Of a stretch of DNA of 64,000 bases, positions 2,294 to 51,900 are shown piece after piece. A program made the translations under genes and the position numbers. The stretch comes from an uncultured Planctomycetaceae bacterium (GTDB lineage: Bacteria > Planctomycetota > Planctomycetia > Planctomycetales > Planctomycetaceae), in NCBI GenBank assembly GCA_963976765.1, contig CAXBME010000008.1, forward strand, positions 62,001 to 126,000, read 5' to 3'. Each line of letters starts with the position of its first letter. Within the stretch, counting starts at the first letter, position 1. The notes under the pieces are model-generated. The model worked only from the letters and a program-made list of their open reading frames with translations, did not search any database and was not told the origin of the DNA.

Positions 2294-2333
2294 GCCCTGA
2301 CTTCGCCATTTTCTTTAACGGCGAATTGCGTGA

Positions 2334-2708
2334 TCAGTTGCTGTCGACGGTGTTTTTCTCGGGCAGTCGCTTCAGCAGTCGTCGGCAGATTCCTTTCAGC
2401 GAGCGTTTGTAGTTGTCGACGGTTGCTCCCGAGTTCTGACGTGGGATCAGGATCAGGTCGAGCCCGACGGGCAGATCGTGCCGGGCAAGTCGGAAGGCTT
2501 CACGCATCAGGCGTTTGAGTCGGCCTCGCTTGACGGCGTTGCCATGTTTCTTCGAAACGCTCAGTCCGCAACGCGTTTCGCCGAGATCGTTCCACGAAGC
2601 GAAGACGAGTAAGTGATCGTCGCCGGCACGGACCTGACCGTCGTAGATGTGGCGAAACTCCGCGGACTTTCGGAGCTTCGCTGATTTTGGAAATGAAAAG
2701 TCAGGCAT
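2334..2708 (-). CDS. rnpA: Ribonuclease P protein component
   Basis: 124-aa basic protein with FPKSAKLRKSAEF, RCGLSVSKKHGNAVKRGRLKRLMREAFR and GLDLILIPR, which match RnpA motifs. Confidence 0.93.
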   Translation of the reverse strand: MPDFSFPKSAKLRKSAEFRHIYDGQVRAGDDHLLVFASWNDLGETRCGLSVSKKHGNAVKRGRLKRLMREAFRLARHDLPVGLDLILIPRQNSGATVDNYKRSLKGICRRLLKRLPEKNTVDSN

Positions 2709-2823
2709 GTGAGTACGCGCAGGTCAGGCTCTGCCTGACGGAGTTTCATTCGTTCGTGATTGAAATTTTCGTGGTTGGAAATTGTCGGAGTACTTCTCCA
2801 GGCGGAGCCCGGCCTGCACATGC

Positions 2824-5046: not shown

Positions 5047-5246
5047 CAGAGGGGCACTCCCGGAATGGTTTCGGCAGGACTGACGAAGCGATACTCGCCG
5101 AGGATGGGCGAGTTGCAGGAACGGCATGTTGGCATGCGTTCGTCGGCCTCGCCAGTCAACATCGAACTCTCAACTCTCAGGATTGCAACTGAGTTGTCGC
5201 ATTCGCAGAATCAGTCGTTCTTCATTCTTCGAAGCAGGATGTCGCC

Positions 5247-6821: not shown

Positions 6822-6974
6822 ATGTTTCTGACGCCGTGGATTCGCACTGTACAGAACCGTCTTTCGTGGTCTCGCTGGTTGCGAAAAAATCGCCGCCATC
6901 AAAAGCTGAGCACCAGCGCCGAAAGGCGAATGAACAAGCAGGCTGAATTGCTTGAGGCTCGTACCCTGCTGACG
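6822..6974 (+). other. Planctomycete extracellular-protein N-terminal motif (Planc_extracel / LEPR-XLL-like)
   Basis: An Arg/Lys-rich leader with no hydrophobic h-region ends in ELLEARTLLT (6945-6974), matching the E-x-L-E-x-R-x-L-L motif of planctomycete extracellular proteins. Confidence 0.8.
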
Positions 6975-21900: not shown

Positions 21901-24900
21901 CGGTGAACACGGCTCCGTCAGTTACGGCTCCGGCAACTGTGACCACGGCGGAGAATTCCGACTTCAATTTCACGGCTGGGAATGCCGTGTCGGTTGCTGA
22001 CCCTGACGTCGGCGACATGCTGATCAACCTGACCGTCACGAATGGAACGCTCAGCCTGGCTCCTGGTGCGATTGGAGCTTTGAGCTTCAACACTGGCGAC
22101 GGCACGGATGACTCGTCGATGGTCTTTACCGGCACAGTGGCCGATATCAACGCCGCTCTCGCTGGCCTGGTTTTCTCGCCGAATATGTCGTTCACCGGTC
22201 CCGCAGTCATGACGCTGGTGATCAATGATCAGAACAATTCGGGAACCGGCACGACACCGAACGCGACGGCTCAGACGACGATCACGGTGACCGAAGTCAA
22301 CGATCCACCGATCCTGCGTTTCAACGGAAACGGTCCATCGTTTGACACGGACGCCAACACGGGTAACGGCATTCAGGATCCGTCAGTTGACGTCGTCAGT
22401 GGAGGAATCTTTGAGTTCAAACCATCCACATCGTCGCTGATCAGCATTTCGGATATCGATGCGGGAGCTGGCCAGATTCAGGTCAGATTGTTTGCTGATG
22501 ACGGAACCCTGACGCTGGCGACAACAACAGGCCTGGACTTTGGATTTAATGATGCCAATGGAGCAGGCGCTGGCGATGGGGTTGATGATCAATTGATGAT
22601 ATTCCGCGGAACGCTGGCCGCGATCAACAATGCTCTGTTCAACGCGACTGACGGCGGCTTGCGCTTCAATGCGCCAATGGGGCCGGAGACGCTATTGATC
22701 ACTGTTGAAGTCAATGACCTGGGCAACACGGGCGGCGGAGCTGAGATCGACACAGGATTTATCGACGTCAATGTCGAAGCGCCGGACAACGATCCTCGAA
22801 ACCTGTTCGAAGGAGGGCTGACCTTCCCGATGGGTATTCCGGTTCAGGAAGGTGCTCCGAACGCGACGCTGGTATTTGACGCAGCCAACAACAGGTTGAT
22901 CTCAGTGTCCGATGCAGACAGCACCAATCTTACGGTCACATTGACTGTGGATGGCGGTGCCACGCTGGACCTGCCGAACCTGGTGGCGTCCGGAGTGAAT
23001 ATCACCGATGGTGACGGTGACGGAAGCGTCCAATTTGACGGCACAATCGCCGATCTGAATACCGCACTGTCGGTCATTAACTTCACCTCGAACGGAACGA
23101 ATCCTTCGACATTCACAATCGTCAGCAGCGACGGTGTCGGCACTGATGACACAGACATGATCGCAATTACGGTCAATGACGCTCCGGACTTCATCAACGA
23201 GACCGTCATGGACGTCTCGTACGACTTCATGGTCAACGAGAATGCGGGTCCAGGGATCATCGTCGGCACGATTACGGCTCAGGATGCGGACGTTACAGCG
23301 ATGATTGATTCGTTGACGTTTGCCATTACGAATGGCAACGCACTGGGTGGATTTGCCATCGTTAAGACGGGCGACGCCACGGCCAACATCGTCGTGGCTG
23401 ATCCAACCGTACTGGACTTCGAAACGAATCCGGCCTTCGCCCTGACCGTCACCGTGACGGACTCGACCGGCGTTCTGGATACGACAACGGTCAACATCAC
23501 ACTCAACGATCTGCCAGAGCAGATCGTCATTGACCCAACTCTCTGGACGAACAACGGGCTGACTCTGCTGCGGGTTGGCAACAACATCCGCATCTTTGAC
23601 ACGGTGACGGGTATTGATGTTGTTCCGGTCAACGATATCGACAACGTGACGGACATTATTTTCCAGGCTCGTGACAACGTCAGTGACACACTGACGATTG
23701 ATTTCTCGGGTGGGAATCCAATTCCGGATGGAACGCCGGCACCGGGCGGCATCAACTTTGATGGTGGCACGGGAATCGGCGTCGATTCACTGAATCTGGT
23801 TGGCGGCGTGACTGACGTGACGCACGACTTTGCTGGTGGCGGAGCAGGAACAGTCACGATCGACGGTACGGTGATCACCTACTCGCGACTTGAGCCGATC
23901 AGCGATCAGCTTGTCGTTGGCGGAAACCGAACCTTTAACTTCTCGGGAGCAGCCGACGCGGTCACGTTGCAGGACGACGCGACTGCGGCTGATGGTGTTT
24001 CGCAACTGGTCAGCCCGACCAACTTCTCCGGTTTCACGTTCAGTGCTCCGGCTGGTTCGCTGACGATCAATCTGGGGGCCGGAGCGGACGCACTGACGGT
24101 CGCCAGCCTGGACAGTAATGCGACGCAGGCGGTGACGGCGGTCGGCGGTGCGGACACTGACACGCTGATCGGCACGGACGGAATCGACGTCATTACGGTG
24201 AATGCCACCGATGCGGGGACGATGGTGACCGGCGGTCTGACGACGACTTTCTCTGAGTTCGAAAGTCTCGATGGTCTCGGCGGCAACGATACCTTTACCG
24301 TCAACGACGGAATCACCTTGAGCGGTGACATCGCTGGCGGACAGGGCGACGACTCGTTCACGATCCTCGGAACGGTTGGCGGAAATCTTAACGGCGGAGC
24401 GGGCACCGACACACTGACGTTTACCGGTCCGGGCACCGGTCCTGGCGACGTGGTCGGAGTGATCTCCAACATCGAACGTGCGATCGTTAACGGCACGAAT
24501 GATCCTGTGAATCCGGATCAGATTGTCGTGCGGCTGAACGCCGCCACGCAGGACATGGAAGTGTTGATTACGACGAACAATGTCACATCAACGCAGACGT
24601 TCTTCCAGCCGCCAGTGACTCCGGTACTGACGGTCTTTGTTAACGGGCTGGCCGGTGACGACACACTGGTGATTGACCATCGCAATGGTTTTGTGGATGC
24701 CAACGTTGTTCTGGACGGTGGTGCGGGTGCGGACTCGATTCAGGTGATCGACGAGGGAAGTGCCACGTCGACGATGACCGCGCTGTACACGCCTGGCAAC
24801 TCGACTGACAACGGCACGATCGTCGTGCAGGAGAACGGTCTGGTTCAGACAGTCACGTTCTCAGGACTGACCCCTGTCGAATTTACCGGCATTGCTCAGG

Positions 24901-27900
24901 CGACGCTCCGGACTCCACGGAGCGCGGACATCGTTACTCTGGCTGCGGCAGTCGGACCGACGAGCGGTTTGAACGCTCTGGAAGTCCGAGGCACCAGTGC
25001 GGGGACTGGGTTTGAAACCTTTTATGCCAGCGACGTCGCTCGTGTCACGGTTGATCTGGCGACGGCAGATAATGCTGGAATGCCGGTCGATACAGTCGTC
25101 ATTGAAGATGGCGCACTCGCCGCGAACGAAGGGCTCGCTCTGAATGGTTTGACGATTCAGACTGGAATTGGTCGCGACGTCATTAACCTTCAGGAAGACA
25201 GCTACCTGACCTTCGGCGGTGAGGACGCACTGGTAATTGACGCCGGTGGGAACACTGACCGGCTGAATGTGAATGTCAGCGCGGCAACGGCACAGATCGA
25301 TCAGATCACGCTAACCAATGACAACCTTGGACTGACGGTTGCAGGAGTATCGGCAGGGGTTGTCAGTTTCCTCTCTCCGGTCAGTGGATTATCGACTCTG
25401 GGCGGCGAAGAAGTTTCGTTGACCGGTCAATCCGGGGCAGGTCTGGACAACATCTTTGATCTCAGCGGCTGGACAGCAGGTACGGCCACTGTCGATGGCG
25501 GGACCAGTACCGACGATACGATCATCGGGCCGGATGTTGATTCACTCTGGGATGTGACCGGTTCGAATTCGGGAGCACTCAATGGCAGCAGCATCAGTTG
25601 GATCGATGTTGAAAATCTGACCGGCGGCTCGGGAGATGATTTGTTCGTGTTGTCGACCGGTGTGACGGTCGCAGGATCTATCGACGGTGCTCGGGCAGGC
25701 GTACTGGGCGGCGTAGACTCCATAGACTTGTCGAATCAGGCAGGTGCTCAGTCGATCGTGTTGACCTCTGTGGTCGACGTGAACGGTTATGGTGGGACCG
25801 TCGCCGCAGTCGCGGGTGGGTTTGCTGATCTCAACGGCATCACCGGAACGATTGCCAGCGACTCGCTGACCAACGCGATTCTCGACGGCGGCAGCAATCC
25901 GGTCGCGGGAACGTTCACCCTCAATTCGAACGCTGGCGTCTTCCAGACTGGTACTGTTGCGGTCAACAATGTGAATGTCACCTTTACGAATCAGGTGGCA
26001 GCGGCGGACACAATTCTGCGTGCCAGTGGCAGTTGGCTCGCCGATGGATTTGCCAGCGGCAATGTCATCACCGTGACAGGATCGGCCAGCAACGATGGCA
26101 ACTTCACCATCGCCAGCGTCACAGCAACAACGCTCACGCTGGTCGCAACCGATACGCTGGTCAATGAAACTGGAGTGGTTGTGGATGTCGCGAGAGTCCA
26201 GACGCCATTCTCTTACAGCGATATCGAAGCGTTTACAGCCGGAAATGCGGGTGACACGTTTAATATTAACGCCGATCAGATTCCAACAACGCTGACCGGG
26301 GGCACTGGAAACGACACGTTTAATCTCAGTGCTGGTGTCGTTGTTAATGGTCCGATCAACGCCGGTGATGGCGACGACACAGTTGTGTTGAACGATGGCG
26401 CACGACTCCAGGCGGGTCAGAACATTGACTTTGGCGCCGGAAGTGACACTCTCAGCTTTGGTGGCGGCGGCAGCGTGATTTCGACCGGAAGTTACTCAAC
26501 CGCTCGCAACGTCGTGTTCAGTACATTGAATTCAGTCGATGGCGGCTACGACGGCAGTGAAACACAGCTGGGCTTCTCATTCAGCAGTGCCGATGCAGTG
26601 AATGGTGGCTCGTCCGGTAACGACACACTGCAAGGTGCCGCAAACCTGGACGCCAACTGGACAATCAACGGTGTCGATCCTCCACCACCGCCGACATTCA
26701 GCTTTGTATTCGTCGTTGACGCTTCCGGGAGTACCAGCCTTGGGTTTGCCGGAACGCCGGTGGGTGATATCAACAATGACGGTTTCGTCGATTCGATCCT
26801 CGATGCGGAACTGGCATCTCTGCTGTCGTTGCGGGATCAACTGGCCGCCAACGGTGAAGTTGCCACGCTCTCACTGGTCGCTTTTGGCACCAACTCGTCG
26901 ATCATCGATATGGATCCGTCGACCCCGGGTGTGCTGGACTTTTCAACATCTGTGACGGCGGACAATGACGGCAATGGTATTCCGGATTTTGAAGACGCTG
27001 TCCGTTCGATCGCGTTCCTTGGAAACACATTCTTCGAGTTTCCATTGCAGGATGCGATCTCCATCTTCAATGCGGTACCAGCCGACAATCAGACGCTGGT
27101 GTTCATGTCGGACGGAGCTCCACAGGATGCGCCACCATTCGTACCGACAGCGTTGTACACGGATGAAGTTGCAACGTTAAACGCACAGGGTGTGACATCA
27201 CGGGCGTTTGGTGTTGGAGCGGGAGCGACTCTGGCTTCGCTTCAGATCATCGATCCGACAGCGGTTATCGTTACCACCGCAGATGAACTGGCAGCTCAAC
27301 TGTCTGGGTTCGGTGGCGGTGTTCCTGCAACGCCCAGTGTGAGTATCTACCGCGATTCAGCCGCGACTCAGATTCTGACCTGGAGTGATTTCGAATATCT
27401 GCAAGGGGCGAATCAGTCGGACGTCTTCCAGTTCGGAGACTTCGTCCCGGACGGCGTGCCGACAGTCACTATTGCTGGCGGCGCGGGTGTCGATCAGCTC
27501 ATCGGTAATGATCAGCAGACCGACTTCCTCGTCAATCTGACCAATGGTGGCAGTATCACGTTGCGTGATCCGAACGGTGGCGACGCCACCGCGTCGCAGT
27601 TTCTGAACATCGAAAACCTGACAGGTGGGGCGGTCGGTGACACGTTCACCTTTACTAATACAGGCAGTCTGACCGGCGAGATTGACGGCGCTGGTGGCGT
27701 GGACACACTGACTGGCGACAATGACGGAAACGTCTTCAACGTCGTTCCTCTGGCTGTGAATCCGGTTGCTTCCAATCAGGGAACCTTTGGAAATACAGGG
27801 TCTGTGGTTTCCACAGGTGTGAACGTCACGTTCGCTGATGCCAACCCCGATACCATCACACGCGCAGCCGGTAACTGGACGACCGATGGCTTTAATGTCG

Positions 27901-30900
27901 GGCAGACGATTGCGGTTTCCGGTTCGACCAGTAACGACGGTGTTTACAGGATCGGTGCGATTTCTGGCGATGGTTTGACCATCACTCTGCTGGCCGGAGA
28001 CACGCTGGTCGCCGAAGCTGGAGCAACCGTAACTGTTGTCAGCAATCCGAAAGCCGTTGAAGGCTTCCGTAATATCGAAAACCTGGTCGGTGGTGATGCA
28101 CAGGATATCTTCAATGTAACCGGTGGTAATCTGACTGGGTCTATTGTCGGGGGAGGGGAAGTAGACACCATCACGATCGGAGCTGGTCGCACGGTGGGAG
28201 ATTCTGTTTCGGGTGGAGCTGGGGCTGACAGTGTCATTCTTCAGAATGGGGCACGAGTCACTAACGGCATCTTTGGGGATGCCGGAAACGATCGGTTTGA
28301 AATCGCGAATGGTGCTACGGTCACCAGTAGCCTGACTGGTGGCACGGAAGACGACCTGTTCATCTTCGGAACGGGAGCAATCCTGATTGGTACGATCGCC
28401 GGTGGCGGGGATGCTGGTGATACTATTGACGGCGGCAACACCGGAACGCTCTACCGCATCACTGCACCGAATGCCGGTGTTCTTAATGGTCGCATGAGCG
28501 GTTTCAATGGCATCCGAAACCTGGTGGGTGGTACCAGTGCCGACACATTCCGCTTTGAATCGACTGGAAGTCTCAACGGATCGATTACCGGCGGGGCCGG
28601 GGATGACAGTCTGCAAACCAGTGATGCTGCCGATCAGTTGACTTTGACAGGAGTCAATCTGGGCAATTCTCTGGTCAATACCGTCACAACGACCTTCGAT
28701 TCACTTGAGAACATCGATCTGCGAGGTAGCGACGACACGATCAACGTTAACGATGGAGCCGGTCTCAGTGGTACCTTGAGTGGTGGCACGGGCAATGACG
28801 TTCTGAATGGGCCAGCCAGCGGCGCGATCTTTAACGTGACGTCTGACAATTCCGGCGAGCTGCGGAACGCTTCCGGGACAGCCGAATTGCTGGGAATTGG
28901 TACGGCAACTCCAGGTTTCTCCAGTACTCCAGGTTTCTCCAGTATTGAAAATCTCAACGGTGGAGCAGGCAACGACATCTTCAACGTTGGAGACTTTGCA
29001 CTGGGTAATCCCGTCACGCTCGCCGGCAACATTGATGGCGGTGGCGGAAGCAACGTGCTGAACCTCGCGCCAAGAGCATCGATCGGCGGAACCGTTCAGA
29101 ATGTCAATGTTACGATCGTGGTTGGTACGAGTTCGGGGATCGTCGCCGGCAACGCCAACGATGACATTCTTGTGCAGATCGCAGGTGGCGAACTCGAAGT
29201 GGTCGTCAATGGTTCGTCTAACCGGTTCTTTGTCCCGACGACGACTGGTCTGAATGTGGTGATGAACATCCTGTCGCAGGGTGGCGCTGACAGTTTGACA
29301 GTCGATTACAGCACTGAATCCGGCAGCGCCGTCCTACCGGGAGAAATTAACTTCAACACGACGGATGGAAATGATCGCGTTCGACTGATCGGAAACGTCG
29401 GGCGGACCGCGACGTATGAACCGGTTCTCGTGAATGGACAGCGGGAAATTCGAATCAGCAATGGCGTCACCGATCGACTGGTACACCTTCAGCAGGCTGC
29501 GGTTCGGCCTCAGATTGAATTCGACACATTCGACTCATTCAACTTCACCAGCCCTGGTGCGGTGGATATCGTCAATCTGTCAGCTGCGGTGGCGCCTTTG
29601 GGAGGTATTCAGGCGTTGCAGGTCGCAGGAAGCAGCGATGCTGTCGATTTTGCGACGCTGTTGCTAAGCCGTGTGGCTGACGTGACTCTTGATCTTGGTA
29701 TTAACGACACGGCTTTTACAGGTTCGGCTGATACGGTGACGTTGAATGCAGGTGCGTTGCGCAGCTATGCGGGTCTGACTGGCGTGAGTGTTTCGACGGG
29801 TGATGGTGTTGACACGCTGACTTTGAATGAGACGAGTTACCAGAACCTTGCGAACGCTGACGTGCTGACTGTTGATCTGGGTGACGGTGCGGACTCTGTG
29901 ATTGCCGCAGCGTCAGGTGACTTCACCCTGGTGAACGGTGCGACGAACGGGAGCCTGACTCTCAACAACGGGGTGAACACCGGCACGGTGGTGTTGAACA
30001 ACTTTGTGACGGACGGTCGTGGTGAAGCGGCTTCGCTGACCGGAGCGGCTGGTAATGACTCGTTCAATCTGAGTGGTCATAACGGCGCCGTCACTGTGAA
30101 CGGCGGCGGGGGCACTGACTCTCTGACGGGACAGTCTGCGTCGGATGTGACGTGGAACTTCACGAACGCGACGACGGGAACAGCGGTTGATGATGCGAAC
30201 CCGGCCGGCACGGTGACGTTCAACCTGATCGAAGAATTCATCGGGAGCACCGGTAACGACACGTTCGTGCTGGGTGCCGGGGTGGCAGCGGCCATCGCTT
30301 CGATCGACGGCGGCACGGGTAATAACACGCTGGACCTGACGGCAGCGGGAGCCAATCAGACGGTGACGCTGACGGCTGTCGGCACGAGCGGAGTAGGTTT
30401 TGCAGGCAACGCGACCGGAGCCGGCGCGTTTGCGATTACAGCTTTCGACAATGTCACCAATGTGCTGGCCAACGGTGCGAATCTTAACACACTGACGGGT
30501 GCGAATCTGAATTCGGCCTGGACGATCGACGGCACGGTCGGCACGGTGGCGACGACAGCCGGGCCGGTACGGAATCTGTCGTTCAGCAACTTCGTGATGC
30601 TCAACGGCGGGACGGAAAACGATTCGTTCGTGGTGATTGACGACTCGACGGCAGCCATTAACACCGACACGGCGATCGGCGGTTCGGGCAGTGACAGCGT
30701 AACAGTCAACGCCGGCCAGACCCTGACCATCCTCATCCCTCTCGCCTTCGGCGAAGGCGATGACGTACTGACCCTCGCGAACGGAGCAACGCTGACCGGT
30801 GCTGGTGTCAACCTGGGCGACGGCAACAACGTCGTCAATCTTGGAACCGGTGCTGTCGTCAACGGAGCAATTACTGGCGGGATTGGTACGGACAGCGTGA

Positions 30901-33900
30901 CACTGGGCACCAATGCCAACGTCACGGGCAACATCACTGGCGGTGCGGGTGCAGACAGTGTGGTGCTGGGTGATGGTGCGACTGTCGGCGGACAGGTTCA
31001 GGGCGGCACCGGTGCTGATACTCTGAGCTTCGCCGGTTACACGACGGCTCGTACTGTCACGACGACGGCGGCGGTGGTCGGCAACGGCTTCACGGGAACG
31101 GAAGCTGCCGTCACCGGTGGCTTCACTGGTATTGATGCTGTGGTCGGTTCGCTGGCCACGACGGACGTTCTGACGAGCACGATCGCTGGCAACGCGTTGT
31201 GGCTGCTGGACACGAATAACGTACTTCAGGAACTCACGACGAATCAGCAGTTGACATTCAGTGCGGTGGAACGGCTTAACGGCGTTGCAGGCAACGACAC
31301 GTTCCGCTTCGGTGCGGGCGTGACCGAATCGTTCACACTGACGGGCAACGGCGGGACCAACGTCGTCGACGGCAGCCTCGGCGATGATACGTTTGCAATT
31401 AACGCGTTGAATGCCGGTACGGTCACCGTCAACGGTCGCACGAGTTCGTTTACAAGCGTGACGGCTCTGAATGGCGGGGATGGTGCGGACAGCTTCAGTT
31501 TCGGTACCAGCGGTACGTTGAACGGAGCGATTGACGGCGGTCTGGGAGCGGACACGCTGACTGGTCCATCGACCGGTGCTGTGTTCACGGTGACGGCATC
31601 CAATGCGGGGACGCTGACTGATCGAGCCGCGAATCCGCTGCTGAGTACTGGCGGCGGCAATGGATTCACCAATGTTGAAAACCTGGCAGGCGGTGCCGGG
31701 CAGGACATCTTCACGGTGACGGCTGTCGGCGCTGCTCTGACGGGAGGCATCTCGGCCGGTGGAGAAGCGGACACGATCACGATTTCCCGTAGTGTCGCTG
31801 GTCTGGTAGACGGTGGTACGGGGAACGACGTGATCGCTCTGCAGGGTGGGGCAACTCTGACGGGGGGCGTTGCTGGTGGAGCCGGCAATGATGCGATCAG
31901 TGTCTCGGGAACTGTGGCTGGTAACCTGGACGGTGGTGCCGACAACGACACCTTCACGCTGGCAGCAGCAGCGATTTTGAACGGTGTGATCACCGGCGGC
32001 ACGGGCAATGACCTGATCGACGGCGGTAACACGTCGACGGTCTTCCGGATTACCGGTGTGAACAGTGGCCTGCTCGATGGTCGAGTCGACGGGTTCAACG
32101 GCGTAGAAAGTCTCGCCGGCGGAAACGCAGCAGACACGTTCCGCTTCGAAGGGACCGGTACTCTTGCCGGTACGATCAACGGCGGCACGGGGGCGGGCGA
32201 TGTGATCGAAGGTCTGGACGGCGGCGTCGACAGTGTGACTCTGACCGGTGCTGATTCCGGGACGGCGTCGTTCGCGGCGACCGGTTTCTCGGATGTGGAA
32301 TCTCTTGATCTGCGGGCGGGTGCGGACAGCGTAACTCTGACCGATGGTTCGAGCCTTTCGGGTACTCTGGGCGGTGGTTCAGGAGCGGACAGGCTGATCG
32401 GACCGGACACTCCGGCCACGTTCACAGTCACTGGTCCAGATGCTGGTAATGTGACTGGCGGGGCAGCCATTCCGAACTTTACCTCGTTCGAAAACCTGAC
32501 CGGTGGTTCCGACGACGACACCTTCAATGTAAACGCCAACCTGACGGGTGCACTGGACGGTGGTCCGGGTAACGACACGCTGAACCTGGCGGCTGGAACG
32601 TCCATCGGCAGTGTCAGCAATGTCGAAAACGTGAACCTGATCGCCAACGGCACCGACGCGAATGACCAGATCGTCATCCGTAACAACGGCGGCATTCTGG
32701 AAGCGGTGATCAACGGAGCGGTCAGCCAGTTCTTCACACCGGCAGGTGCGTTGAACATCTCGCTGACGGTCAACGGATTCAACGGGACGGACACGCTGAC
32801 GCTGGATTACTCAAGCGGTGCTCTGCCTGATGAAATCACCTTCGCCGACCGCCTGACGACCGGCGGCGGTGCCGAAGGAAATGCCGAGCGGGTTCGCATC
32901 ATCGGTGGCGGTACCGAAGACGTGGACATCTCCGACACACTCGACGCCAATGGTCGCCGCGTGGTGACCGTCACTGATGGTGGTGTGAGCCAGACCGCGC
33001 TGATCGAAATCGGTGCGTTGTACGAACTGGAATCACTGAGCAGCGTAACGCTGACCAGTCCCGGCCAGGCGGATGCCGTGACAGTGAGCGCTCTGACGAC
33101 GAGCACAATCAGCTCGCAGACGGCCATGCTGATCACGGAAGCCGCCAACAACTTCGAGCGTCTGGAACTGATTGGCGTGGCGACGATTGATCTTGATCTT
33201 GGTATTAACGACACGGCTTTTACAGGTTCGGCTGATACGGTGACGTTGAATGCAGGTGCGTTGCGCAGCTATGCGGGTCTGACTGGCGTGAGTGTTTCGA
33301 CGGGTGATGGTGTTGACACGCTGACTTTGAATGAGACGAGTTACCAGAACCTTGCGAACGCTGACGTGCTGACTGTTGATCTGGGTGACGGTGCGGACTC
33401 TGTGATTGCCGCAGCGTCAGGTGACTTCACCCTGGTGAACGGTGCGACGAACGGGAGCCTGACTCTCAACAACGGGGTGAACACCGGCACGGTGGTGTTG
33501 AACAACTTTGTGACGGACGGTCGTGGTGAAGCGGCTTCGCTGACCGGAGCGGCTGGTAATGACTCGTTCAATCTGAGTGGTCATAACGGCGCCGTCACTG
33601 TGAACGGCGGCGGGGGCACTGACTCTCTGACGGGACAGTCTGCGTCGGATGTGACGTGGAACTTCACGAACGCGACGACGGGAACAGCGGTTGATGATGC
33701 GAACCCGGCCGGCACGGTGACGTTCAACCTGATCGAAGAATTCATCGGGAGCACCGGTAACGACACGTTCGTGCTGGGTGCCGGGGTGGCAGCGGCCATC
33801 GCTTCGATCGACGGCGGCACGGGTAATAACACGCTGGACCTGACGGCAGCGGGAGCCAATCAGACGGTGACGCTGACGGCTGTCGGCACGAGCGGAGTAG

Positions 33901-39900: not shown

Positions 39901-42900
39901 TCTGGAATCTGACGGCACTGACCTTCGTCACGCCAGAGTCGAACGATGTTGTGACGCTCTCTGCGGGGACGGACGCGCATCAGGGAGTCCAATCCGCACT
40001 TGTGATCTCCGGCAGCAGCGGTGGGACGATGTTCCAGCCAGTTCACCTGCGGGACATCACGAGTCTTGAACTCGATCTGGCGGCCAATGATGGTGTCAAT
40101 GCTGACGACCAGGTGACAGTCAATGATGGTTCGCTGGTCGCCAACCAGGCACTGGCAGAACTGACAATCAGCACCGGCGAAGGTGTCGATACCTTTGACA
40201 TTCAGGAAGACGACTACACACTGCCTGGCCAGCCTCCTGTGCCGCCTGTTTCGACATTGCCGATTATTACCATCGACGACGTCTCTGTGGCAGAGGGTGA
40301 TGGCGGTCTGTTTGACTCAGCTCAAAGCACGTTTGTGTTTGGTGGATTTGGCTTCAGTAGCACCCAGGAGTTCGTAACAGGGAATTTCAACCCAGTCACG
40401 GACCAATTTACAGACATGGTTGCGGTCGCGAATTTTGGGACCGTTGCTCCAAGCGTACTACTCAGTAATGGACCAGCGAGAACATTCACTGCTGGGCCCG
40501 CAATACCGTTTTCTCCGCCGCAGAATGGGTTCTTTGAAGTCGCGGTAGGGGATATCGATGGTGATGGCGACGATGACATCATCGTGCTTGATACTGGTGC
40601 TGACCAGATTACTGTGTTGACGAATACGGATGGTCAGGCCAACTTCGCGGTAGTAGGCACGATCAGTGGTGGTGCCGGAGTGAGCGACATTCAATTGGCA
40701 GATGTTGATGGCGTGAACGGATTGGACATCGTCGTCAGTAATAGCCTTACGGGCGCCATTCAGGTCTATAGAAATGTGGGCGGTGGAGGCTTCAATGGTA
40801 CGCCAGTTACGACTGCCGGGCTTGTTAATGCAAACAATACCGAATTCAAGTTTGCTGATTTGAATGGAGACTTCGCTCCAGATTTGATTTTTCTTGATGG
40901 TGGAAGTGGGAACAGTATTCTGACCGTAATGCTGAACCGCGGTGACGGTTCAGGTAGCTTTGACCCGTTTCGTCAGATCAGCGTCGGCACCTTCGTGCAG
41001 GATGTCGAGGTAGCAGATGTTGATAACGATGGTGACCAGGACATTCTCGTTATCGATAGCGGTGCCGCGAATGATCCAGTTGTGATAATCGAGAACGATC
41101 TCGCCGGTACGGCAATGGATCTTGTTCTACGAGGGCCTGTTGACACAAACGGCCTGTTTTCCAACACATTGGCTGTCGGCGATCTTAATGGAGATGGGAA
41201 TGTCGACATTGTCACGGGCGATTTCGCGACTTCGGCGGAGGTTCGTGTTCTATTGGGGAATGGTGATCTTACGTTCCAGAACGTTCTGGTGTTCGGGACA
41301 GCAGGAAATCTTGACGGTGATCTTCTGCAGATCGCTGACTTCGATGGTGACTCGCGACTTGATCTCGCTGTCGTGGATGCGAATGGAAGTGGTACTGTCT
41401 TCTTCAACTCCGGTGTACCGGATGCCGTTGTAACTCTCACACTGTCTGCGCCGGATCTGACGAACCCGGTCACGGTCGACGTGGCGTTGACGGATGGCCT
41501 GGCCGCGGGTGGAGTCGATTACGAAAACGTTCTGACGACTCCCGTCGTGTTTGCTCCAGGGCAGACGACGGTCCAGATTTCGATTCCGATGATTGGCGAC
41601 ACACTGGTCGAAGGTAATGAGAACTTCTTCGTCAATCTCTCCAACGCGGTGAATGCGGTTATCGGTGATGCCCAGGGGCAAGTCACGATTCTTGAAGATG
41701 ATGGTGGCCTTGCTGGCCCGACCGTCGAGATTGACGATGTGACGTTCAACGGTGAGGGAGACGCTGGAACCGCCACCGCCACTGTCACGGTTCGGCTGGT
41801 TGGTGGACCGGCTGCGACGGACATTACTGTTGACTACAGCTTCCAGGATCAGACGGCTCGAGCAGGATTCGACTATGTGGCTGCACCGGGCAGTGTGCAG
41901 ATTCCAGCGGGTGCGACATCGGCCACGTTTACTGTTGATATCATTGGCGACCTGATTAACGAACAGAACGAGACGTTCCTGATTAACATCGCTCAGTCGA
42001 CTCCAGGCGAATTTGGCGTCATTTCAAGAAGTCAGGCGACGGTCACCATTTCGGCGAATGACAGCGCTATTCCAATTCTTGGTGGTGGCCTGACGTTTGA
42101 CGGCGGAGCGGGGCAGGATGTGCTTCGAGTTACCAGCGATGCGGGGCTGATTGAACTCGATGCAACTCCCGGTGCATCTGAAGTCCGACTCGGGACGGTT
42201 GGCTCATCCGGTGCTCAGGGAACCTTGAACCTCGAAAATCTTGCCGGTGAAGTGCTGTTTGTGACCGGTGGAGCGAGTAACAACACGATCGATCTGAGCC
42301 TCTGGACGAGCAACGCCACCGGGACGATCGATGGTCTTGGTGGTGTTGACACGCTGGTTGGTCCAACAGCGACACAGGTCACCTGGGATATTGCCGGGGC
42401 CGCCGCAGGAACCGTCGAGAACTTCGGCTACTCAAACGTCGAGAACCTGCAAGGGACGGCTGGCTCGAACGATCGATTCATCTTTGATCCAGCGGTCACC
42501 GTAGCGGGATCGATCAGTGGCGGTCTGGGTGGAAACGATCAGATCAACTACAGCTCATTTGGTGCCCCGGTCAATGTGATTCTCACGGGTGCAAACGGCA
42601 CCGGCACAGAAGCTGGGTCGATCGCCAATGGGTTCACCGGGATTGAAAACTTCATCGGGACTGGCGGAGGCGACTCGTTTACTGGTCGTAACGTTGCCTC
42701 GACATGGACGATCAGTGCCTCGACCAGTACGTACTCTGCGGGTGGAGCCGTCACGTTCCGCGACTTTGCGTCCGTCAACGGTGGGTCCGCTGCGGATGAC
42801 TTCAGTATTCAGACTGACGTGACTCTTAATGTTTCAACGGGCGACGGTACAAACACTGTCACGGTGGCTAACGATCGAACGCTGACGGGTGACATTACTG

Positions 42901-45900
42901 GTGGTGCGGATTCCGACACGGTGACGTTGAATTCTGGTGCTTCCGTAGCCGGCTCGATCTCGACAGCTGCCGGCAACGACAGGTTGCAGCTTGGCAATGG
43001 TGCTGACATTACTGGTAGTTTTGCCGCCGGTGCCGGAATCGACGCTTTGAGCTTTTCCGGTTACACAACCGCTCGTGATGTTGCGATAACGGCTGTTAAC
43101 GCGACTGACGGATTCGACGGAACTGAAGTTTCTATTGGCGGTGGGTTTACGTCGGTGAACAGCCTTACGGGAAGTGCCAGCGGCAGCGATGCACTGCAGG
43201 GGCTGGCGACGACCGCTGCCGTCTGGACCATCGCTTCGAATGGTAGCTACAACGCTGGCGGTGAAGTTCTGGCGATCAGCTCGTTCGAGGACTTGACTGG
43301 CAGCAGTGCCGACGACCGTTTCCAGTTTGGAAGCTTCGGTATTGGAGCGGTTCCTCAAGTTACCGTTTCAGCCGGTGCGGGTAATGACCAGCTTGTTGCA
43401 AACGTTAGTGGCTCAGACTTCCTCGTTACCGCAGCCGATGCTGGAACCGTGACCGTACGCAACTCAGCGGCGATTCCGGCGACAGCGGTCAGCCAGTTCT
43501 TCAGTGTCGAATCACTGGTGGGGAACTCGGGCAACGATCGATTTGAATTCCTGAATTCGGGGTCGTTGACAGGTTCGATCGACGGAAACGTCGGCAACGA
43601 CACACTGGTTGGCGACTCCGACGGGAATATCTTCACCGTCACGTCAGAAGACGCCGGAACGCTGGCAGGAAAAGTTGCCGGTGGTTTTGTTGAAATTGAG
43701 AATCTGGCGGGCGGGCTGGCCTCTGACACGTTCAACGTCAATGCCGACCTGAATGGTGGCATCAGTGGATTTGCCGGCGAGGACGTTGTTGTGGTTGCGG
43801 ACGGCGTCACGATCGCGGGGGCAATTGATACAGGGTCGGCAGCCGACCAGTTGACCTTCGGAAATAATACTGTCATTGGCGGAGCGGTCACCGGAGGTGC
43901 TGGTGCTGATACTCTGACGATTCAGGGAGCAATTACAGCGACTATCGGCGGTGGAACTGGCAACGATCTTTTCGTTCTTGGAACAGCTGCAAGTGTTACA
44001 GGAACTCTCGACGGTGGGGCTGGTGTTGACGAAATCCTGGCGTCCAGTAACGCGACGACTTTTGTCATCAACGCTGTTGATTCCGGTGCTGTGACGGGGC
44101 AGGTTGACGCCTTTATCAATGTCGAGAATCTGACTGGCGGTGCCGGTAACGACGTCTTCCAGTTCGAAACGGGCGGTCGCCTGACGGCTGGAGTCGTCAA
44201 TGGTGGTGCCGGTACTGACACGCTGGACGGTGACCTGAACTCCAATAACTTTGTTATCTCCGGTACCGATTCGGGAACCTATGACTCCGACCAGGCAACG
44301 GGTGGTGAGGTTGTTTTCCTCAATGTCGAATCCCTCGACGGACGTAGCGGAAACGATCGGTTCCGATTCACAAGCCTTGGAGTTCTGACTGACGTGCTTC
44401 TGGGTGGTGCCGGTCTGGATGAACTGGTTGCGTCGAACAACGGGGACGTGTTCCACGTTACTGCGACGAATGCTGGTACGCTTTACGATGGACCAGGTCT
44501 TACGAATCCACGAACCGTCAATGGGTTCCTGAGCGTCGAAAATCTGACTGGCGGCGATGGCGAAGACACATTCGATATTGATGCCGACGTCTTTGGCAAT
44601 CTGATCGGCGGCGGCGGAAACGACACGTTTACAGTCGATGGGAATGTTGGGGGAGATTTGGACGGCGGAGCCGGCACTAACACGCTGACTCTTGGGGCCG
44701 GTGCATCGATCGCCGGAAACGTTTCGAATGTCAACGTCACTCAGACTGTAAACGCTCCGGAAGATGGCTCACCGGACGTCATTGAACTTCGTCTGAACGG
44801 CAGTACCGGAGCTTTGGAAGCCGTCGTTAACGGAGTTGTCAGCTCGTTCTTCGTTCCGACGAATCTTGACTTGACGATTCAGGTGCCTGCTACGACTGAC
44901 GACGTATTCCTGACAATTAACAACGCCAACGGTGGCCTGATCGATGCGGATATCGTGTTCTCAGGTGGGGCGGGTGATGACGATCTGAGTGTTATCGGCA
45001 GCGGCTCTCCTGCCGAGAATGCTGTTTACACCCCAAGCAGTTCTCTGAATGCAGCTGGGTTGGTCGAGATTGAGAACTTCTCGACCGGTATCACACAAAC
45101 GATCACATTTGAAGATGCTGGTCCGGTTGATTTTGCCAATGTGGCACGGCTGACGTTCGTGACACCGGCTTCAAATGACGTGGTCGATCTTTCCGCCGGG
45201 CTGGATGCTCACTTCAACACTCAGAACGCATTGGTCATTTCCGGGCTCAGCGGTGGGACCGCTTTCGCAGCGGCTCACATCCGCAGCACGATCAGCGTGG
45301 CAGTTGACCTGGCGACCAATGATGGGGTTTCGCCAAATGATGTCGTGAACATTAACGATGGCGCGCTGCAGGCCAACTCTGATCTGGCTGAACTGAGCGT
45401 CAGCACGGGGAACGGAACGGACACCTTTAACGTGTCTGAAGATGATTACCTTCTGCCGGGCGCTGCTGCAGCGACCGTGTCGACCTCGACTCTTCCAGAG
45501 TTGACAATCACAGATGTCACCACACGTGAAGGTGATCCGATCACCTTTGAAACCGGGACGAACATCACTGGTGTCGGCGGATTCTTTCCTCAGGATATGG
45601 TTGAATTCGACTTCGATGGCGACAATGACATTGACCTGGCAACCATCGATCTGGCCAACGGATTCGTGACGATTCTTGTTAATACTGGGAATGGCAACTT
45701 TGTCGCATCGACCTCGGGCGGGATCAGTACGACCAGACCGACAAACCTTGCAGCGGGCGATTTCGACAACGACGGACGCGATGATCTGGCGATTTTCGAT
45801 GACGTCTTCGACACGGTTGAGATCCTGAGAAGTTTCGCTTTCACTCGGGATAATCCGTTCTTCATCCAGACCAGTTTCCAGACGATCACCTACCCCACGA

Positions 45901-48900
45901 CCGGATTCGCTCCTGCGTTCTCGGGAGTGCAGGCCGTCGACATTGATAACGACAACGATATTGATCTTGTGTTGTCGAACGACGCTGGATCCGGGTTTGG
46001 CGGTGGTCACATCACTGTGATTCGAAACAGTCTTGAGCTCGGGATTGGATTTGGGGGGGCGGTCTTCCAGACCAACGGTGAAGCCTTCAGTACTCTCTCG
46101 ACCAGAGCCCAGGACCTGGTGCTAGATGATTTTGATGGGGATGGCTCTCCGGATGTTGTTGTGATTTCCGATGTGAACCGGACCGGCTTCACATTCATGG
46201 CGAATTCTGGAGTCGGGACTTTCGGGTCCAGCTTGTTCACGCCTTCGGTAGCTGGCTTGAATGCTGTGACATCTGGTGACGTCAATGGTGATGGTCGGCC
46301 AGATGTGATTCTGCTGAGCGACAGTTCAATCCTTGTTTTCGAAAATCTTGGGGGAACCGTTCCAGCGTTCGCGGCCGGGGCTGTGATTGCAACGGGTGGT
46401 TTTGCCGGCGTGGATGTCGTGACCGGAGACTTCAATGACGACGGAAACCTCGATATTGCAGCCACTGACTCGAATAACAGCGAAGACGTCATTGTGTCGT
46501 TCGGAAATGGCGCTGGCGCATTCGGATCAGCTCAGTTGTTTGCGACAGGGCTGGTCACCAGTTTCCAGGGAGCGGCTCTGGTCACTGCTGACTTCAATAA
46601 CGATGGGCTGGTTGATCTCGCTCAATACAGCGACTCTACCGGAAATGGGGCTGTGAGTATTTTGACAAATACTTCTGCGGCTACGGCACTGCTTACCGTT
46701 TCGCTGTCGTCTGTTGCGACTCAACCCGTGTCGTTCAACTACTCGCTGTCAGATGGACTTGCGACGGGGTTAAACGACTTTAATAGCAGTGTCTCCAATC
46801 CAGTGACGATTCCAGTCGGGCAGTCGTCCGTCACCATCGCCATACCAATCTCAGGTGACCTGAATGTGGAGTCGGACGAGAACTTCTTTGTGAATCTATC
46901 GAGTCCGGTGAATGCCGTGATCGCCGATGGTCAAGGGCAGGTCACCATTCAGGACGACGATGGTTTTGCTGGTGCCGGGCCTCGAATCAATATCGGGGCA
47001 GCGTTCACATTCACAGAAGGAGACTCGGGAGTCACGACAGTGTCTGTGCCTCTGACGCTGAGCGCCGCTCAGGCTACAGATGTGACGGTGGATTTTGTGA
47101 CTCGTGCTGTCACGGCTCAAGCCGGTGTTGACTACATTGATACGGCAGGAACCGTGACGTTTACTGCGGGGAGCACCACCGCCAACATCCTGATTGACAT
47201 CGTCGGTGACCTGGTGAACGAAGGTGCTGAAACGTTCCTGATCAACCTGCTCAATTCAACGGATGTGGTTCTCGCAAACACTCAGTCGTTGGTCACGATT
47301 GACGTCAGTGATTCTAACGTCCCGGTCTTTAATAACGGTTTGCGCCTCGACGGCGGTATCGGCACCGACCGAATCATTGTGACAGCTGATGTTGGGCTGA
47401 TTGAGCTTGATGCGACGACAGGTGCAGAGCAGATCAGACTGGGGACTGTTGGCGTTCCAGGTTCACTTGGTCGTGCTAACCTGCTCAATCTTGCCGGAGA
47501 GGACGTGACTGTCCTTGGGGGAGCGGCTGACAACATTATTGATCTGAGTCTGTGGAGTAACGGTGCCCGAGCGACTGTGGACGGTCGTGGTGGCGACGAC
47601 ACATTTGTCGGATTGGATGTCAGCAGCGATTGGACAATCACCGGAACAAATGCGGGGCAGGTCGGCGACTTCACATTCCTTGACGTCGAAAATCTGGTCG
47701 GCGGTGCTGCCGACGATGACTTCATCTTTAATGGCGGATTTGTCACCGGGTCCGTCAATGGAGGCGCGGGAGGGATTAACACGCTGACGGTGGGTAATAC
47801 CGAAAACGCCTGGACATTCGAGCGGATTGCCGGCGGTAGCGTTCGGTTGGGCCCGATTGTGACCGATCCATTGCTGAACTTTGACAATTTGCAACTGGTC
47901 AATGGCGGCACAAACGTCGATACGTTCACCTTTGCCGGTGGCTCAATTGCCAGCCTCGCAGGTGGAACGGGTGAAGATGTGGTAACCGGCGACAACCTCG
48001 CGAATACATGGCGTGTTCGAGACGTCAACGGTGACTCACTGACGGTTGATGAAGGTACCTTGACGTCTGCGTTGGGAATTACAGTGTTCTCCGGCATCGA
48101 GAATCTGGTCGGGGGTAATTTGGTTGACACATTTGTGTACGACCGCGACTCACGAATTTCCAGAACGATTGACGGGGGTGCCGGTGCGGCGAACATTCTG
48201 GACTTGAGTGGTTACGTCACCTCTCTCACGACGACTTTGACCAGCATTGGAAGCACCACCGGTTTTGCGGGTACTACACAGGGAATGTTCAAGCCGGTTG
48301 GTGACACGTTCGACAATATAACAGCCATCAACTTCAGTACGCAGAACGCAACGATTGGTGACAACCTGATCGGTTTGAACTCGACGGCTCAGTGGAACTT
48401 TGGGGCATCCACTTACACGACTGCCGGGCGAACTCTGAACTTCACTCTGGGAGCTACTGATGATGTGACCGGCGGAAGTTCGACTGATACTTTCAGTTTT
48501 GTGGGTGCAGCAGCCTCAGCAATCCGAAATGTCAACGGAGCCGGCGGTGCGGATACGATTACTGGTAATAATGTTGCGACGAGCTGGGCAATCAGTGGAA
48601 GTAATTCAGGTAGCTTCCAGCCGGGAATTTCTGCGATCGGCGGTTTCAGTAACATTGAGAATGTTGTCGGTGGCAGCGCAGTCGATACATTCACCTTTAC
48701 AAACAGCGGGCGACTCGATGGCACCATTGATGGTGGAGCCGGGATGGACTTTATCGTCGGTGATGCCGACGGTGTTCAGATTACTGTTACGGCTGGGCTG
48801 AATGATTCCGGTGTGATCCTCGAACAGGATGGCGCGACGGTTAAAGTGGTCAATGGGTTCTCAAGTGTCGAGAATCTTACAGGTGCCGGAGCGAGCGACG

Positions 48901-51900
48901 TCTTTGTGATTAATGGGACACTGGGTGGCAACGTGGATGCTGGTGGTGGAAACGACACCATTTCATTCAGCAATAGCGGAAGCGTGGCAGGAGTCATCAA
49001 TGGTGGTTTCGGGTTCGACATCCTTATTGGTGACGATAATGCGAACGCGTTTGTAATCAGCGGTGCGAATTCTGGAACGTTGACCGGGAAGTTCAGCTCG
49101 TTCCTGAACGTTGAAACGCTTTCCGGAGCGGGCGGAGACGACTCGTTCACCTTCACCGATTCCGGAAATTTGAATGGTCTGGTCATCGGTGGCGATGGCA
49201 ACGATACGATCGTCGGCGATGAAGACGGCAACATCTTTGCAGTCAGTGGGGTGAACGCTGGCGTTCTGTTCGGAAAGACCAGTTCATTCAGCGAGATCGA
49301 GAATCTGTTTGGTGGGGCCGCCGCAGACTCGTTCTCTGTGACGGGCAGCTTGTCCGGAAATATTGATGGGCGAGCCGACAGCGATATCTTCAGCATACTG
49401 AGTGGGACAACTGTCGGTGGAACTGTGTCTGGGGGTACTGGCGACGATCTGTTTACGATCACTGGTACAGTCGTGGGGCGAGTGCTCGGAGGACTGGGTA
49501 ACGACACCTTTAACCTCAACGCTGGAGCGAGCATTTTTGCGGGAGCATCCAGCAGTTCTGCTGGCCCGAACGGTGTTGATGGCGGAGCAGGCAACGACAC
49601 CTTCAACGTCAACGGTGCATTGACCGCAACCCTCGATGGTGGCGCGGATATCGACACCATTCTTGGCCCGAACGGCGCAACGATTACGATTACCGGCGTC
49701 GGTCAGGGGACAATTATTCCTGGCTCTTCGGGCGGGTTCTTCAACATGGATTCGATCCAGGGGTCGGCAGGATCCGAGACGTTTATTATTGCTGGTGATT
49801 TTGGCGGGGATCTGAACACTGGCGATGGCGATGACAATGTCACCATTCAGTCTGGTGGGTCAGTCAACAGCATTAACACCGGCAATGGCAATGACACGGT
49901 CGTTCTGGAAGACGGTTCAACCGTCAATGGAAACATCGACCTGGGCGCTGGAAATGACAGTCTCTCGATTGCGGATCAGGCAACGTTTGACGGAATCATC
50001 AACGGCGGAACAGGTGACGACATTGTCACGATCGACTTCTCGACGACGACTCCTGGCCAGCCTAGAGCCATTACCTTCAACGGCGGTGCAGGTAATGACG
50101 ATCTTGTGCTGACTGGTGGCGGAGCAGCTTCAACGGTCGACTACACCGTTGGTCCAAATGCTGACGAAGGAACGATCGTCACCGACCTTGATGGTAATGC
50201 CGGAACGATGACCGATCGTCAGACGATTACTTTCACCGGACTCGAACCAGTTGAAGATACTCAACTAGCGGCCACGTTTACGATTAACGGTTCAGCCGGC
50301 AACAACACGATCAACGTAATCGATGGTCCTGGCGGTCTGAACGAAGTTAACTTTAACGGAGCCTTCGAGCTTGTCCGGTTCAGCAACAAGACAACGGTCG
50401 AAGTCAATGGACTCGGCGGAGCTGACACGATTAACCTGAATTACACGTCCGGATCGGCCACGTTCAACGCGTTGAATGTGAACGCGGGAGCGGGCAATGA
50501 CACGGTCAATGTCCAGGCAAGCCATCTCGGCAGCATCGACGGTGGTGATGACACCGACCAGATTATTCTGAGCAATGGCGTCACGGTCAGCGGTACTGTG
50601 AGCGGCGGAAGCGGCACCGACACGCTGAACTACGCCGCGTTCACTTCGGATATTGCTGTTAACCTGGCAATGCAGTCGGCAACCTCGATCAATGGTGGAG
50701 CTGCTGCTGGTATTTCCGGGATTGAGAGTCTGCGAGGGGGTTCAGGCAGCGACTCACTGACCGCTGAAAACAATGCCAATGCCATCAACATTACGGGGGC
50801 AAACGCTGGCAACATCGATTCGACGTTCTCGTTCTCCTCTGTTGAAAACCTGACAGGTGGCTCGAACGCCGACTCCTTCAATTTCAGCAATGGAGCGAGC
50901 GTTGCCGGAACGGTCAACGGTGGATCGGGCGGAACGGACACGTTGAACTTTGGAGCCTATACAACGGCAGTCTCGGTCAACCTTCAGACTTCCGCGGCGA
51001 CGGGAATCAACGGTGGAATGATGGCCGGATTCTCGAACATCGATTCGATTACTGGCGGCTTTGCTGCTGACTCCATCACCGGACCGGATGCGAACCAGAC
51101 ATGGACAATCAACGGCAGCGAGTCAGGTAACGTGGCTTCAGTTGACTTCAGTGAGTTTGAATCGCTGAATGGCGGCTCGGGTGACGACACCTTTGCCTTC
51201 AATGACGGTGTTGCTCTGGACTTCTCGATTAACGGTGGTGCTCAGTCGACTGCTGATACGGTGACGTTTGCGGCTTCGACGTCGGGGGTTTCTGTCGACG
51301 TGAGTCGGCTGACGGGTATTGAAGCGCTGGTTGGTTCCGGTAACAGCGACACGCTGGTTGGGACGTCGGGCGACGACATCTTCGACGTGACCGCTGCAAA
51401 CTCGGGAACGATCAACACAAGTACTGCGTTTGCCAGCTTCGAAAATCTCACCGGCGCTGGCGGTAACGACCAGTTCCTCTTTGAGGAAGCCAGCAGTCGC
51501 ATTGATGGCAATGTTGACGGGCAGGCCGGGACGGACACGCTCAGCTACGCAGATAATCCTGGGGGCTTTGCAAACATCACTCTGAACGGAATCGGCACCA
51601 GCGGTTACGGCGGGATCGAAGCGGGTCTTTCCAGCCTGATGGCTTTCTCCAATGTTGACTCGCTGGTGGCAACATCGTCAGGAAACGACTTTATTGGTGG
51701 ACTGAATCTTGCTTCGACCTGGGTCGTGACTGACACGACTGGCTCGTACGCAGCGACGGGCGGATCGACTCTGAACCTGTCGGCCTTCGAGTTGTATTCA
51801 GGCGGATCGGCGGCGGACACGTTTAATGTCAGCGGTACGCCGACGGCAAACTTGAGCGGCCAGGAAGGCGACGACGCCTTTATCTTTGCCACCGGCGCGA

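Follow-up and report, generated by a model that had tools for sequence, protein, structure and literature searches.

A giant planctomycete open reading frame with a long-period, predicted RTX stalk that carries domains at sites within its repeat units

Introduction

Can a bacterial protein be built as a periodic scaffold that carries different domains at defined positions along its length, and what would such a protein do? The question is raised by a stretch of 64,000 nucleotides (here called the window) from an uncultured Planctomycetaceae bacterium (GenBank assembly GCA_963976765.1, contig CAXBME010000008.1, positions 62,001 to 126,000 of the forward strand), which contains an open reading frame (ORF) of 17,289 amino acids (aa) at positions 6822..58691. 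This ORF and all its parts given below by window position lie on the forward strand. It comprises an N-terminal multi-domain region, cadherin-like domains, a stalk of six long units, a further RTX/linker region and a C-terminal RTX block. A preliminary description, made from the sequence alone, had proposed that the stalk is a constant scaffold repeat of ~1,130-1,170 aa, with defined loop sites that accept different binding domains, acting as a natural modular display system.

Results

The stalk is made of long units with inserts inside them

The six markers on which that proposal was founded (positions 24513, 29157, 32661, 36165, 39540 and 44772) all fall in one ORF and mark the starts of homologous units, each of which opens with a ~230-aa head domain. 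They are spaced 4,644, 3,504, 3,504, 3,375 and 5,232 bp apart (1548, 1168, 1168, 1125 and 1744 aa), exactly as described. Unit 1 (24513..29156; 1548 aa) consists of a 1160-aa scaffold plus three inserts; units 2 (29157..32660; 1168 aa), 3 (32661..36164; 1168 aa) and 4 (36165..39539; 1125 aa) are free of cargo, and unit 4, with its head and ten RTX block/linker modules, serves as the reference scaffold; units 5 (39540..44771; 1744 aa) and 6 (44772..50015; 1748 aa) carry one large insert each. When the inserts (246, 666 and 252 bp in unit 1; 1,851 bp in unit 5; 1,860 bp in unit 6) were subtracted, an approximately constant unit was indeed left, of 3,480, 3,504, 3,504, 3,375, 3,381 and 3,384 bp for units 1-6, and in an alignment of the six units the inserts appeared as clean internal gaps.

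Collinearity was measured with a profile derived from eight insert-free units belonging to other genomes only, with five block-shuffled versions of each unit as controls. Units 1-5 scored 2150-2554, against means of 940-1112 for the block-shuffled versions; three stretches of the same composition from the same protein, used as further controls, scored 713-996. The units thus align collinearly after insert removal, end to end in units 1-5 but over the first third only in unit 6. The latter scored 1436, and its middle third, at 405, did not surpass two of the control stretches (447 and 409). It is a terminal variant with a collinear front and a re-ordered rear, as seen in the profile matches; since its middle third is at control level and its modules are re-ordered, the agreement in its remaining length is partly coincidental.

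The inserts lie inside the units, not at their boundaries. Unit boundaries were ruled out as an explanation by the three separate sites in unit 1 and by the site that follows the head, which also falls inside the unit and where the insert replaces a loop of ~10 aa between consecutive GxGxD turns. The word 'constant' applies to the length and module order of the scaffold and not to its sequence, pairwise identity among the six units being 33-61%. Eleven insert-free units averaged 1160 ± 20 aa, a set without unit 4 of the related genome G003 (847 aa) and unit 1 of genome G014 (1080 aa). Nor does it apply throughout, since the terminal unit is rearranged and unit 4 of G003 lacks 279 profile columns.

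The scaffold is predicted to be an RTX rod with CyaA-type linkers

Each unit consists of the head followed by ten blocks of GGxGxD-type turns, each closed by an F-x-x-(I/V/F)-E-type motif. In the scaffold consensus, nine of these linker motifs were picked up by a regular expression and the tenth was recognised in the flanking sequence; the Glu is present in eight of the ten. Most of unit 1 was modelled with AlphaFold2 from an alignment of 20 rows. The mean predicted local distance difference test score (pLDDT) was 76, with values mostly of about 80-95 for the scaffold on either side of every insert. The best Foldseek matches of the model were to the RTX domain of CyaA (E 2e-10 to 7usl), and comparison with blocks IV-V of 6sus, including their linker, gave a Z-score of 14.2 and a root-mean-square deviation (rmsd) of 4.2 over 223 residues. 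The unit is accordingly modelled as a higher-order repeat of a head and ten block/linker modules with predicted CyaA-type linkers, and the stalk as a predicted kinked, calcium-bound RTX beta-solenoid rod, the GGxGxD repeats pointing to Ca2+-dependent folding. In the available text of PMC8486122, three features define a CyaA linker, namely an aromatic residue at its N-terminus, one additional antiparallel strand and an (I/V)EN motif that contributes its Glu to Ca2+ binding; partners are engaged by the linkers and not by the flat roll; and the domain is proposed to have grown by block-plus-linker duplication, arrays of linkers being put forward for engineering. The preliminary description had overlooked both the RTX block-plus-linker nature of the scaffold and the split-domain display already known in RTX adhesins.

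The Pfam scan assigned the head domain to no family; the Atlas clusters nearest to it were mostly Planctomycetota. A search with a profile of the head alignment returned 949 proteins at E<=0.001 (one of them, P0001, looks like the G014 protein). Among the 150 of these 949 proteins that were listed, P0005 alone matched at least 600 scaffold columns in one piece. The head is therefore widespread; with the queries used, the same was not seen for the full unit.

Cargo domains of the window

As had been described, unit 1 carries a VWA-like domain plus two modules of ~0.25 kb, which model as small separate barrels. Insert X1 (25956..26201), a beta-barrel module of ~80 aa located in a linker hairpin, gave weak PHROG matches, and its range in the model (213-293) could be superimposed on the N-terminal barrel of a V/A-ATPase (Z 8.4, rmsd 2.3, 74 residues). 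The second barrel module, insert X2 (27798..28049), also in a linker hairpin, matched phrog_1236 with an E of 6e-8. Modules X and Z resemble structural modules of phage virions (PHROG; the matches of X being weak), and the barrel X and phage-tail-like module types are found both in the N-terminal region of the ORF and as stalk cargo in relatives. The VWA-like insert (26670..27335) is held in a linker loop by Pro-rich tethers. Its assignment stands with a qualification, the PF00092 match (E 0.0012, 19.6 bits) falling below the cut-off of 23.8 bits; it is also indicated by DASGS and SDG motifs, of what we take to be the DxSxS...T...D type, and by a low-confidence alpha/beta model. In the unit-1 model every insert sits between two scaffold strands.

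The Calx-beta/FG-GAP cassettes of ~1.85 kb attributed to units 5 and 6 were likewise recovered. In unit 5 (40218..42068; Pfam matches, model pLDDT 85), a Calx-beta domain is interrupted after its initial strands by a complete FG-GAP propeller; its remainder and then a second Calx-beta follow, an arrangement denoted Calx[FG-GAP]Calx. The propeller that splits the first Calx-beta (40305-41423) matches PF13517 above its cut-off and models with the seven-blade fold of complete integrin-alpha propellers (Z 33, rmsd 2.7, ~342 residues). The second Calx[FG-GAP]Calx cassette, in unit 6, spans positions 45453..47312, and its propeller shares only 31% identity with the unit-5 one.

Unit number and cargo vary among related genomes

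The start of unit 4 was matched in 7 of the 41 genomes of a search among relatives and in 33 of the 398 genomes of a family-wide search (E<=1e-8, mostly once per genome), the window's own genome being included in these counts. The orthologue in G003, of the same genus, is 18,968 aa long from its start codon, has seven units and is 67-81% identical outside the stalk. That in G023, of another genus, has 16,341 aa in an ORF open at the contig start, with at least nine units. Genomes G020, G195 and G196 matched the unit-4 start, yet contained no clear full unit. Scans of metagenome and genome collections with a unit-5 head pattern yielded 209 and 116 matches, with no confirmed relative among them, and the unit alignment offered no usable conserved stretch for such pattern scans. 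The comparison of orthologues bore out the expectation that unit number (six, seven and at least nine) and cargo identity at shared sites would differ.

When 28 segments were mapped on the profile (boundaries refined by eye), cargo was found in three of the six units of the window, four of seven in G003 and three of nine in G023. The after-head site holds a Calx[FG-GAP]Calx cassette in units 5 and 6 of the window and in units 8 and 9 of G023, a bare FG-GAP propeller in unit 7 of G003, and a barrel X in genome G049. Around profile column 621, the unit-1 VWA is present in the window, G003 and G023; the same site in unit 3 of G003 is occupied by a 364-aa VWA-like domain, perhaps integrin-beta-like, that cannot be aligned with it and for which a PDB sequence search gave no match. 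Further cargo in G003 includes a 71-aa module, a phage-tail-like module in three copies (PHROG E down to 2e-12) and, in unit 5 (L013:3767-6745), a BNR/Vps10 propeller of ~1,000 aa with a ~210-aa zincin-motif domain (HEVGHALSLLH) nested in it.

Nine distinct insertion sites were defined, one of them from a non-canonical G049 segment. Four lie 5-8 residues before an (I/V)EN-type motif (P about 8e-4, the distance range having been chosen post hoc). Six are clearly in linkers (P about 0.008, calculated by hand), or seven if a borderline one is counted (P 0.001), these ranges also being post hoc. A control based on small indels was passed by 57.5% of the columns, so it did not discriminate.

In the orthologous comparisons made, cargo is less conserved than the scaffold on either side of it. 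The values were 62 versus 66-74% and 36 versus 52-56% identity for the VWA, 48-60 versus 66-74% for X, and 35-40 versus 42-69% for the propellers. Homologues of the cargo are carried by small RTX proteins of the window's own genome (1,400-1,700 aa, with an N-terminal LExRxLL motif, which we take to be of the planctomycete-extracellular type): the BNR propeller at 60% identity (without the zincin), the second VWA at 41%, the first VWA at 32%, and Calx[FG-GAP]Calx. The variable central cargo of this family comprises Calx-beta, VWA, FG-GAP, BNR propeller and metallopeptidase-like domains, and its Calx-beta is interrupted at a constant position, in some cases by a VWA (the homologue of the first VWA lies in a split Calx-beta) and in others by a propeller. 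Members were located at C2:24.5-28.9 kb, C2:~361.6-366.8 kb, C3:~60.3-64.7 kb, C22:~142.5-146.8 kb and C29:~71.5-76.4 kb of this genome (G000). To judge from these homologies, the small RTX proteins and the stalk likely share a cargo pool.

The unit array is old and has been locally homogenised

A quick tree was made of 27 units stripped of their inserts (segment c646_a of G049 being left out). In it, units grouped by position and not by genome: units 1, 2, 4, 5 and the terminal unit each fell with their orthologues, unit 6 forming its own clade with the terminal units of G003, G023 and G049. Because units cluster by position across genomes, the array must have arisen before these genomes separated; whole units appear to have been gained or lost in individual lineages. 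The scaffold-plus-cargo architecture of the preliminary description holds, and its 'display system' fits as slow evolutionary domain shuffling, since the lineages of the units go back beyond the point at which the three genomes diverged. Programmed cassette switching was ruled out by the age of these lineages and by the lack of a recombinase among the flanking ORFs scanned.

A tract of ~1.05 kb is nearly identical in DNA between unit 2 (29687..30739) and unit 3 (33191-34243), its flanks being diverged, and contains an exact repeat of 1,005 bp. Such a repeat is longer than a short read, and no listed contig spans the whole stalk, so it could be argued that the tract, or even the periodicity, arose during assembly. 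That reading is largely refuted and its chances are next to nil: the units overall are only 33-61% identical, and separately assembled genomes hold orthologous units in the same order. The two copies of the tract are collapsed to a single contig in the assembly of run X1; in run X3, which comes from a diverged relative and another study, contigs stop at the tract and its depth is about twice that of the flanks. Moreover, one X3 contig covers positions 24501-29699, including the three unit-1 inserts, at about 95% identity. Runs X3 and X5 lacked cover over the unit-5 propeller, an observation that was given no weight. This behaviour of the tract in the two runs, together with its diverged flanks, speaks for a genuine repeat whose copies are kept similar by gene conversion; such conversion is the likely origin of the tract and seems to be ongoing.

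Discussion

What the protein may do

The giant ORF probably encodes a secreted adhesin, in which an RTX rod folds in Ca2+ and ligand-binding domains are held sideways from permissive loops. The protein would probably leave the cell with its C-terminus leading, through a type I-like pathway, and then fold outside, driven by Ca2+. In the models, the motifs that end the blocks would close CyaA-type inter-block linkers, and cargo would bud from linker hairpins or roll turns, leaving the rod unbroken. A beta-roll advances 4.8 Å per coil of 18-25 residues, so that each unit would add about 22-31 nm. The VWA and propeller domains may have proteins or glycans of surfaces or cells as their ligands. Ordinary domain shuffling would supply the units with cargo from the pool present in the genome, whole units being gained or lost by unequal recombination and locally homogenised by gene conversion. 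Export, anchoring and binding by this giant protein are here inferred.

Several observations weigh against this adhesin. The LapA-type retention module NF033682 had no match in the genome or in the N-terminal 1500 aa (a divergent anchor is possible), and its absence leaves cell anchoring unaccounted for. HlyB, HlyD and TolC gave no match over the family cut-offs, and none adjoins the gene. Cargo-free units are common (three of six in the window, three of seven in G003, six of nine in G023), barrel X has no known ligand, and the metal site of the G023 VWA looks degenerate (DTSTP). The VWA and X inserts were modelled with low confidence, the VWA-like alpha/beta region having pLDDT values mostly of 32-60. 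At least two of the nine insertion sites lie outside linkers, that of the BNR propeller being borderline at 34 residues before the motif. To these may be added the re-ordered rear of unit 6 and the loss of about 280 aa in unit 4 of G003.

The best candidate for export is a divergent LssB-like ATP-binding cassette (ABC) transporter with an HlyD-like gene (L029:3124-6818, contig C14 of G000). This pair lies about 17 kb from a 7,730-aa LExRxLL/RTX gene. Among ORFs of at least 400 aa with an N-terminal LExRxLL in this genome, 16 of 32 have [IVLT]DxxF within their last 45 residues, as against 71 of 2728 other frames. The tail is a candidate C-terminal export or processing signal; it is also present in the giant ORF (58614-58691). 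Five more frames of 6,289-11,832 aa are found in the genome (contigs C9, C14, C3, C1 and C46), four with LExRxLL and none with an IEN-linker array.

A stronger version of the display idea would make the protein a natural modular display rod, with CyaA-type linkers as sockets, the small RTX proteins as cargo pool, surface fibres with a period of ~25 nm and an undescribed LExRxLL/IDxxF export route; as part of the same scheme, Calx-beta would be a second-level socket for VWA or propellers. Taken as a whole, this is a proposal to which we give a modest chance. The rod itself might instead be what matters, whether it gives reach or, by folding in Ca2+, acts as a ratchet for the export of the N-terminal enzyme region; the inserts would then be passengers that are tolerated in permissive loops and bring little benefit. 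The many empty units (six of nine in G023), the degenerate G023 VWA motif, the recurrence of barrel X at many sites and its resemblance to tandem copies in the N-terminal region of the same gene would all fit, and the lower identity of the cargo is equally compatible with relaxed selection. Passengers would not, however, be expected to include a unit-1 VWA and a Calx[FG-GAP]Calx that are intact and in frame across two genera, a propeller that models as a complete seven-blade fold, or two non-alignable VWA-like domains at one site, and this explanation seems unlikely.

An assignment as a structural fibre, sheath or matrix component like the RTX S-layer protein RsaA, whose units stack or bundle while the cargo cross-links copies or matrix polymers, would be in keeping with the long-period repeat and its conserved length across genera, with the virion-like modules X and Z and with the lack of a retention module; RsaA is itself among the fold matches, weakly (E 0.011). 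A lattice would hardly tolerate a variable number of units, the loss of 280 aa from one of them and inserts that are 70-1,000 aa long, and such a role looks rather improbable. Finally, the rod could be a secreted tether for attack or foraging that brings catalytic domains (the N-terminal zinc peptidase; the zincin of G003) to prey cells or polymers, a use partly compatible with adhesion. The N-terminal region does contain an HExxHxxGxxH motif and beta-helix regions recognised in the domain scan, HEVGHALSLLH is found in G003 cargo, and giant proteins of bacteria of the Planctomycetes-Verrucomicrobia-Chlamydiae (PVC) superphylum are linked to predation in the accessible part of 10.1101/2023.11.21.568195. 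Against this, none of the five stalk inserts of the window looks catalytic, the neighbours are housekeeping or unrelated genes, and no toxin-activation gene was found among the ORFs scanned. Pfam/NCBIfam scans of the pieces of the ORF and eight flanking ORFs revealed neither pore-forming or effector domains nor a toxin-acyltransferase partner (for which no genome-wide search was made), and RTX-toxin models matched only the nonapeptide block, far below cut-off. We hold the tether for very improbable.

Comparison with known systems

In RTX adhesins of the LapA/MpIBP/FrhA/AhLap type, ligand-type domains bud from split Ig-like, beta-roll and vWFA domains, with mix-and-match cargo, according to the available text of PMC10865825, PMC12077191 and 10.1101/2025.09.30.679566; the last two include split beta-rolls that project vWFA domains, and vWFA domains that bind diatoms. 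Going by those parts of the literature, the giant ORF shares with the LapA/MpIBP type a C-terminal RTX block, split-domain cargo and a variable repeat number; its ligand-type domains that bud from split domains are recognised by architecture only. In LapA/MpIBP-type adhesins, again as covered there, the stalk is a spacer composed of short Ig-like extenders and the cargo gathers in the distal ligand-binding region, near the tip, whereas here the stalk itself is an RTX super-repeat of ~1,150 aa with cargo sites spread along it. The ORF has no tandem Ig-like extender stalk (only a short cadherin-like run, the stalk being predicted as an RTX solenoid), no retention module and no adjacent type I secretion system, and it begins with an LExRxLL motif. 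With the RTX domain of CyaA (6sus, 7usl) it shares the predicted fold, the (I/V)EN linker signature and linkers that stand off a flat roll, as these are presented in the accessible sections of PMC8486122. CyaA, by the same account, has five blocks and binds directly through linker surfaces; the giant ORF, by contrast, has some 60 linkers, arranged in a higher-order repeat that includes a head domain, and whole domains are inserted into them; no cyclase or pore-forming region was seen in it. Giant proteins of the PVC superphylum (>10,000 aa, with periodic beta structure and a proposed role in adhesion) and the frequency of giant genes in Planctomycetota are reported in the available portion of 10.1101/2023.11.21.568195, which describes antiparallel helical tubes and SecA/peptidase domains, and no RTX super-repeat with cargo.

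Literature searches, with most subscription papers outside their reach, returned no account of a stalk in which an RTX super-repeat of ~1,150 aa bears cargo all along. That stalk is what is new here; split-domain budding and mix-and-match cargo were known already. It would be a natural counterpart of the linker-array scaffold whose engineering is proposed in the part of PMC8486122 at hand. To protein designers it offers tested insertion sites, cargo of 70-1,000 aa at mapped positions and a rod predicted to be Ca2+-switchable; to planctomycete biology, a concrete and testable candidate for surface attachment, as well as a candidate export signal common to half of the genome's LExRxLL proteins.

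Other features of the ORF and its surroundings

The LExRxLL-type motif of the giant ORF (LEARTLLT, 6951..6974) lies near its N-terminus; though this motif is present, the ORF was not among the 11 sub-threshold matches to PF07595 (Planc_extracel) in the genome. The zinc-metallopeptidase motif of the N-terminal region, HEIAHTLGLGH (10554..10592), is backed by a weak Peptidase_M10 match (E 0.0077) and is flanked by PPC-like domains. It is followed by a single copy of a phage-tail-like module (12849-13085) and by a tandem array of four barrel modules X of ~80 aa each (16944..17945), which are 44-61% identical to both stalk copies and are a possible source of them. Cadherin-like domains (21474..23516; PF00028 E 1e-9, and PF17803) precede the stalk. 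Beyond the stalk, profile matches revealed a degenerate head, more RTX/linker modules and a last head domain (49998..56624), after which come the canonical RTX nonapeptide block and the C-terminal IDxxF tail (56625..58691); the nonapeptide beta-roll matched PF00353 in 15 stretches (E 1.4e-76). Upstream of the ORF (2-5127) are genes for a leucine-rich repeat (LRR)/LamG protein, open at the window start, and for an SGL/FG-GAP protein, and the G003 orthologue has similar upstream neighbours.

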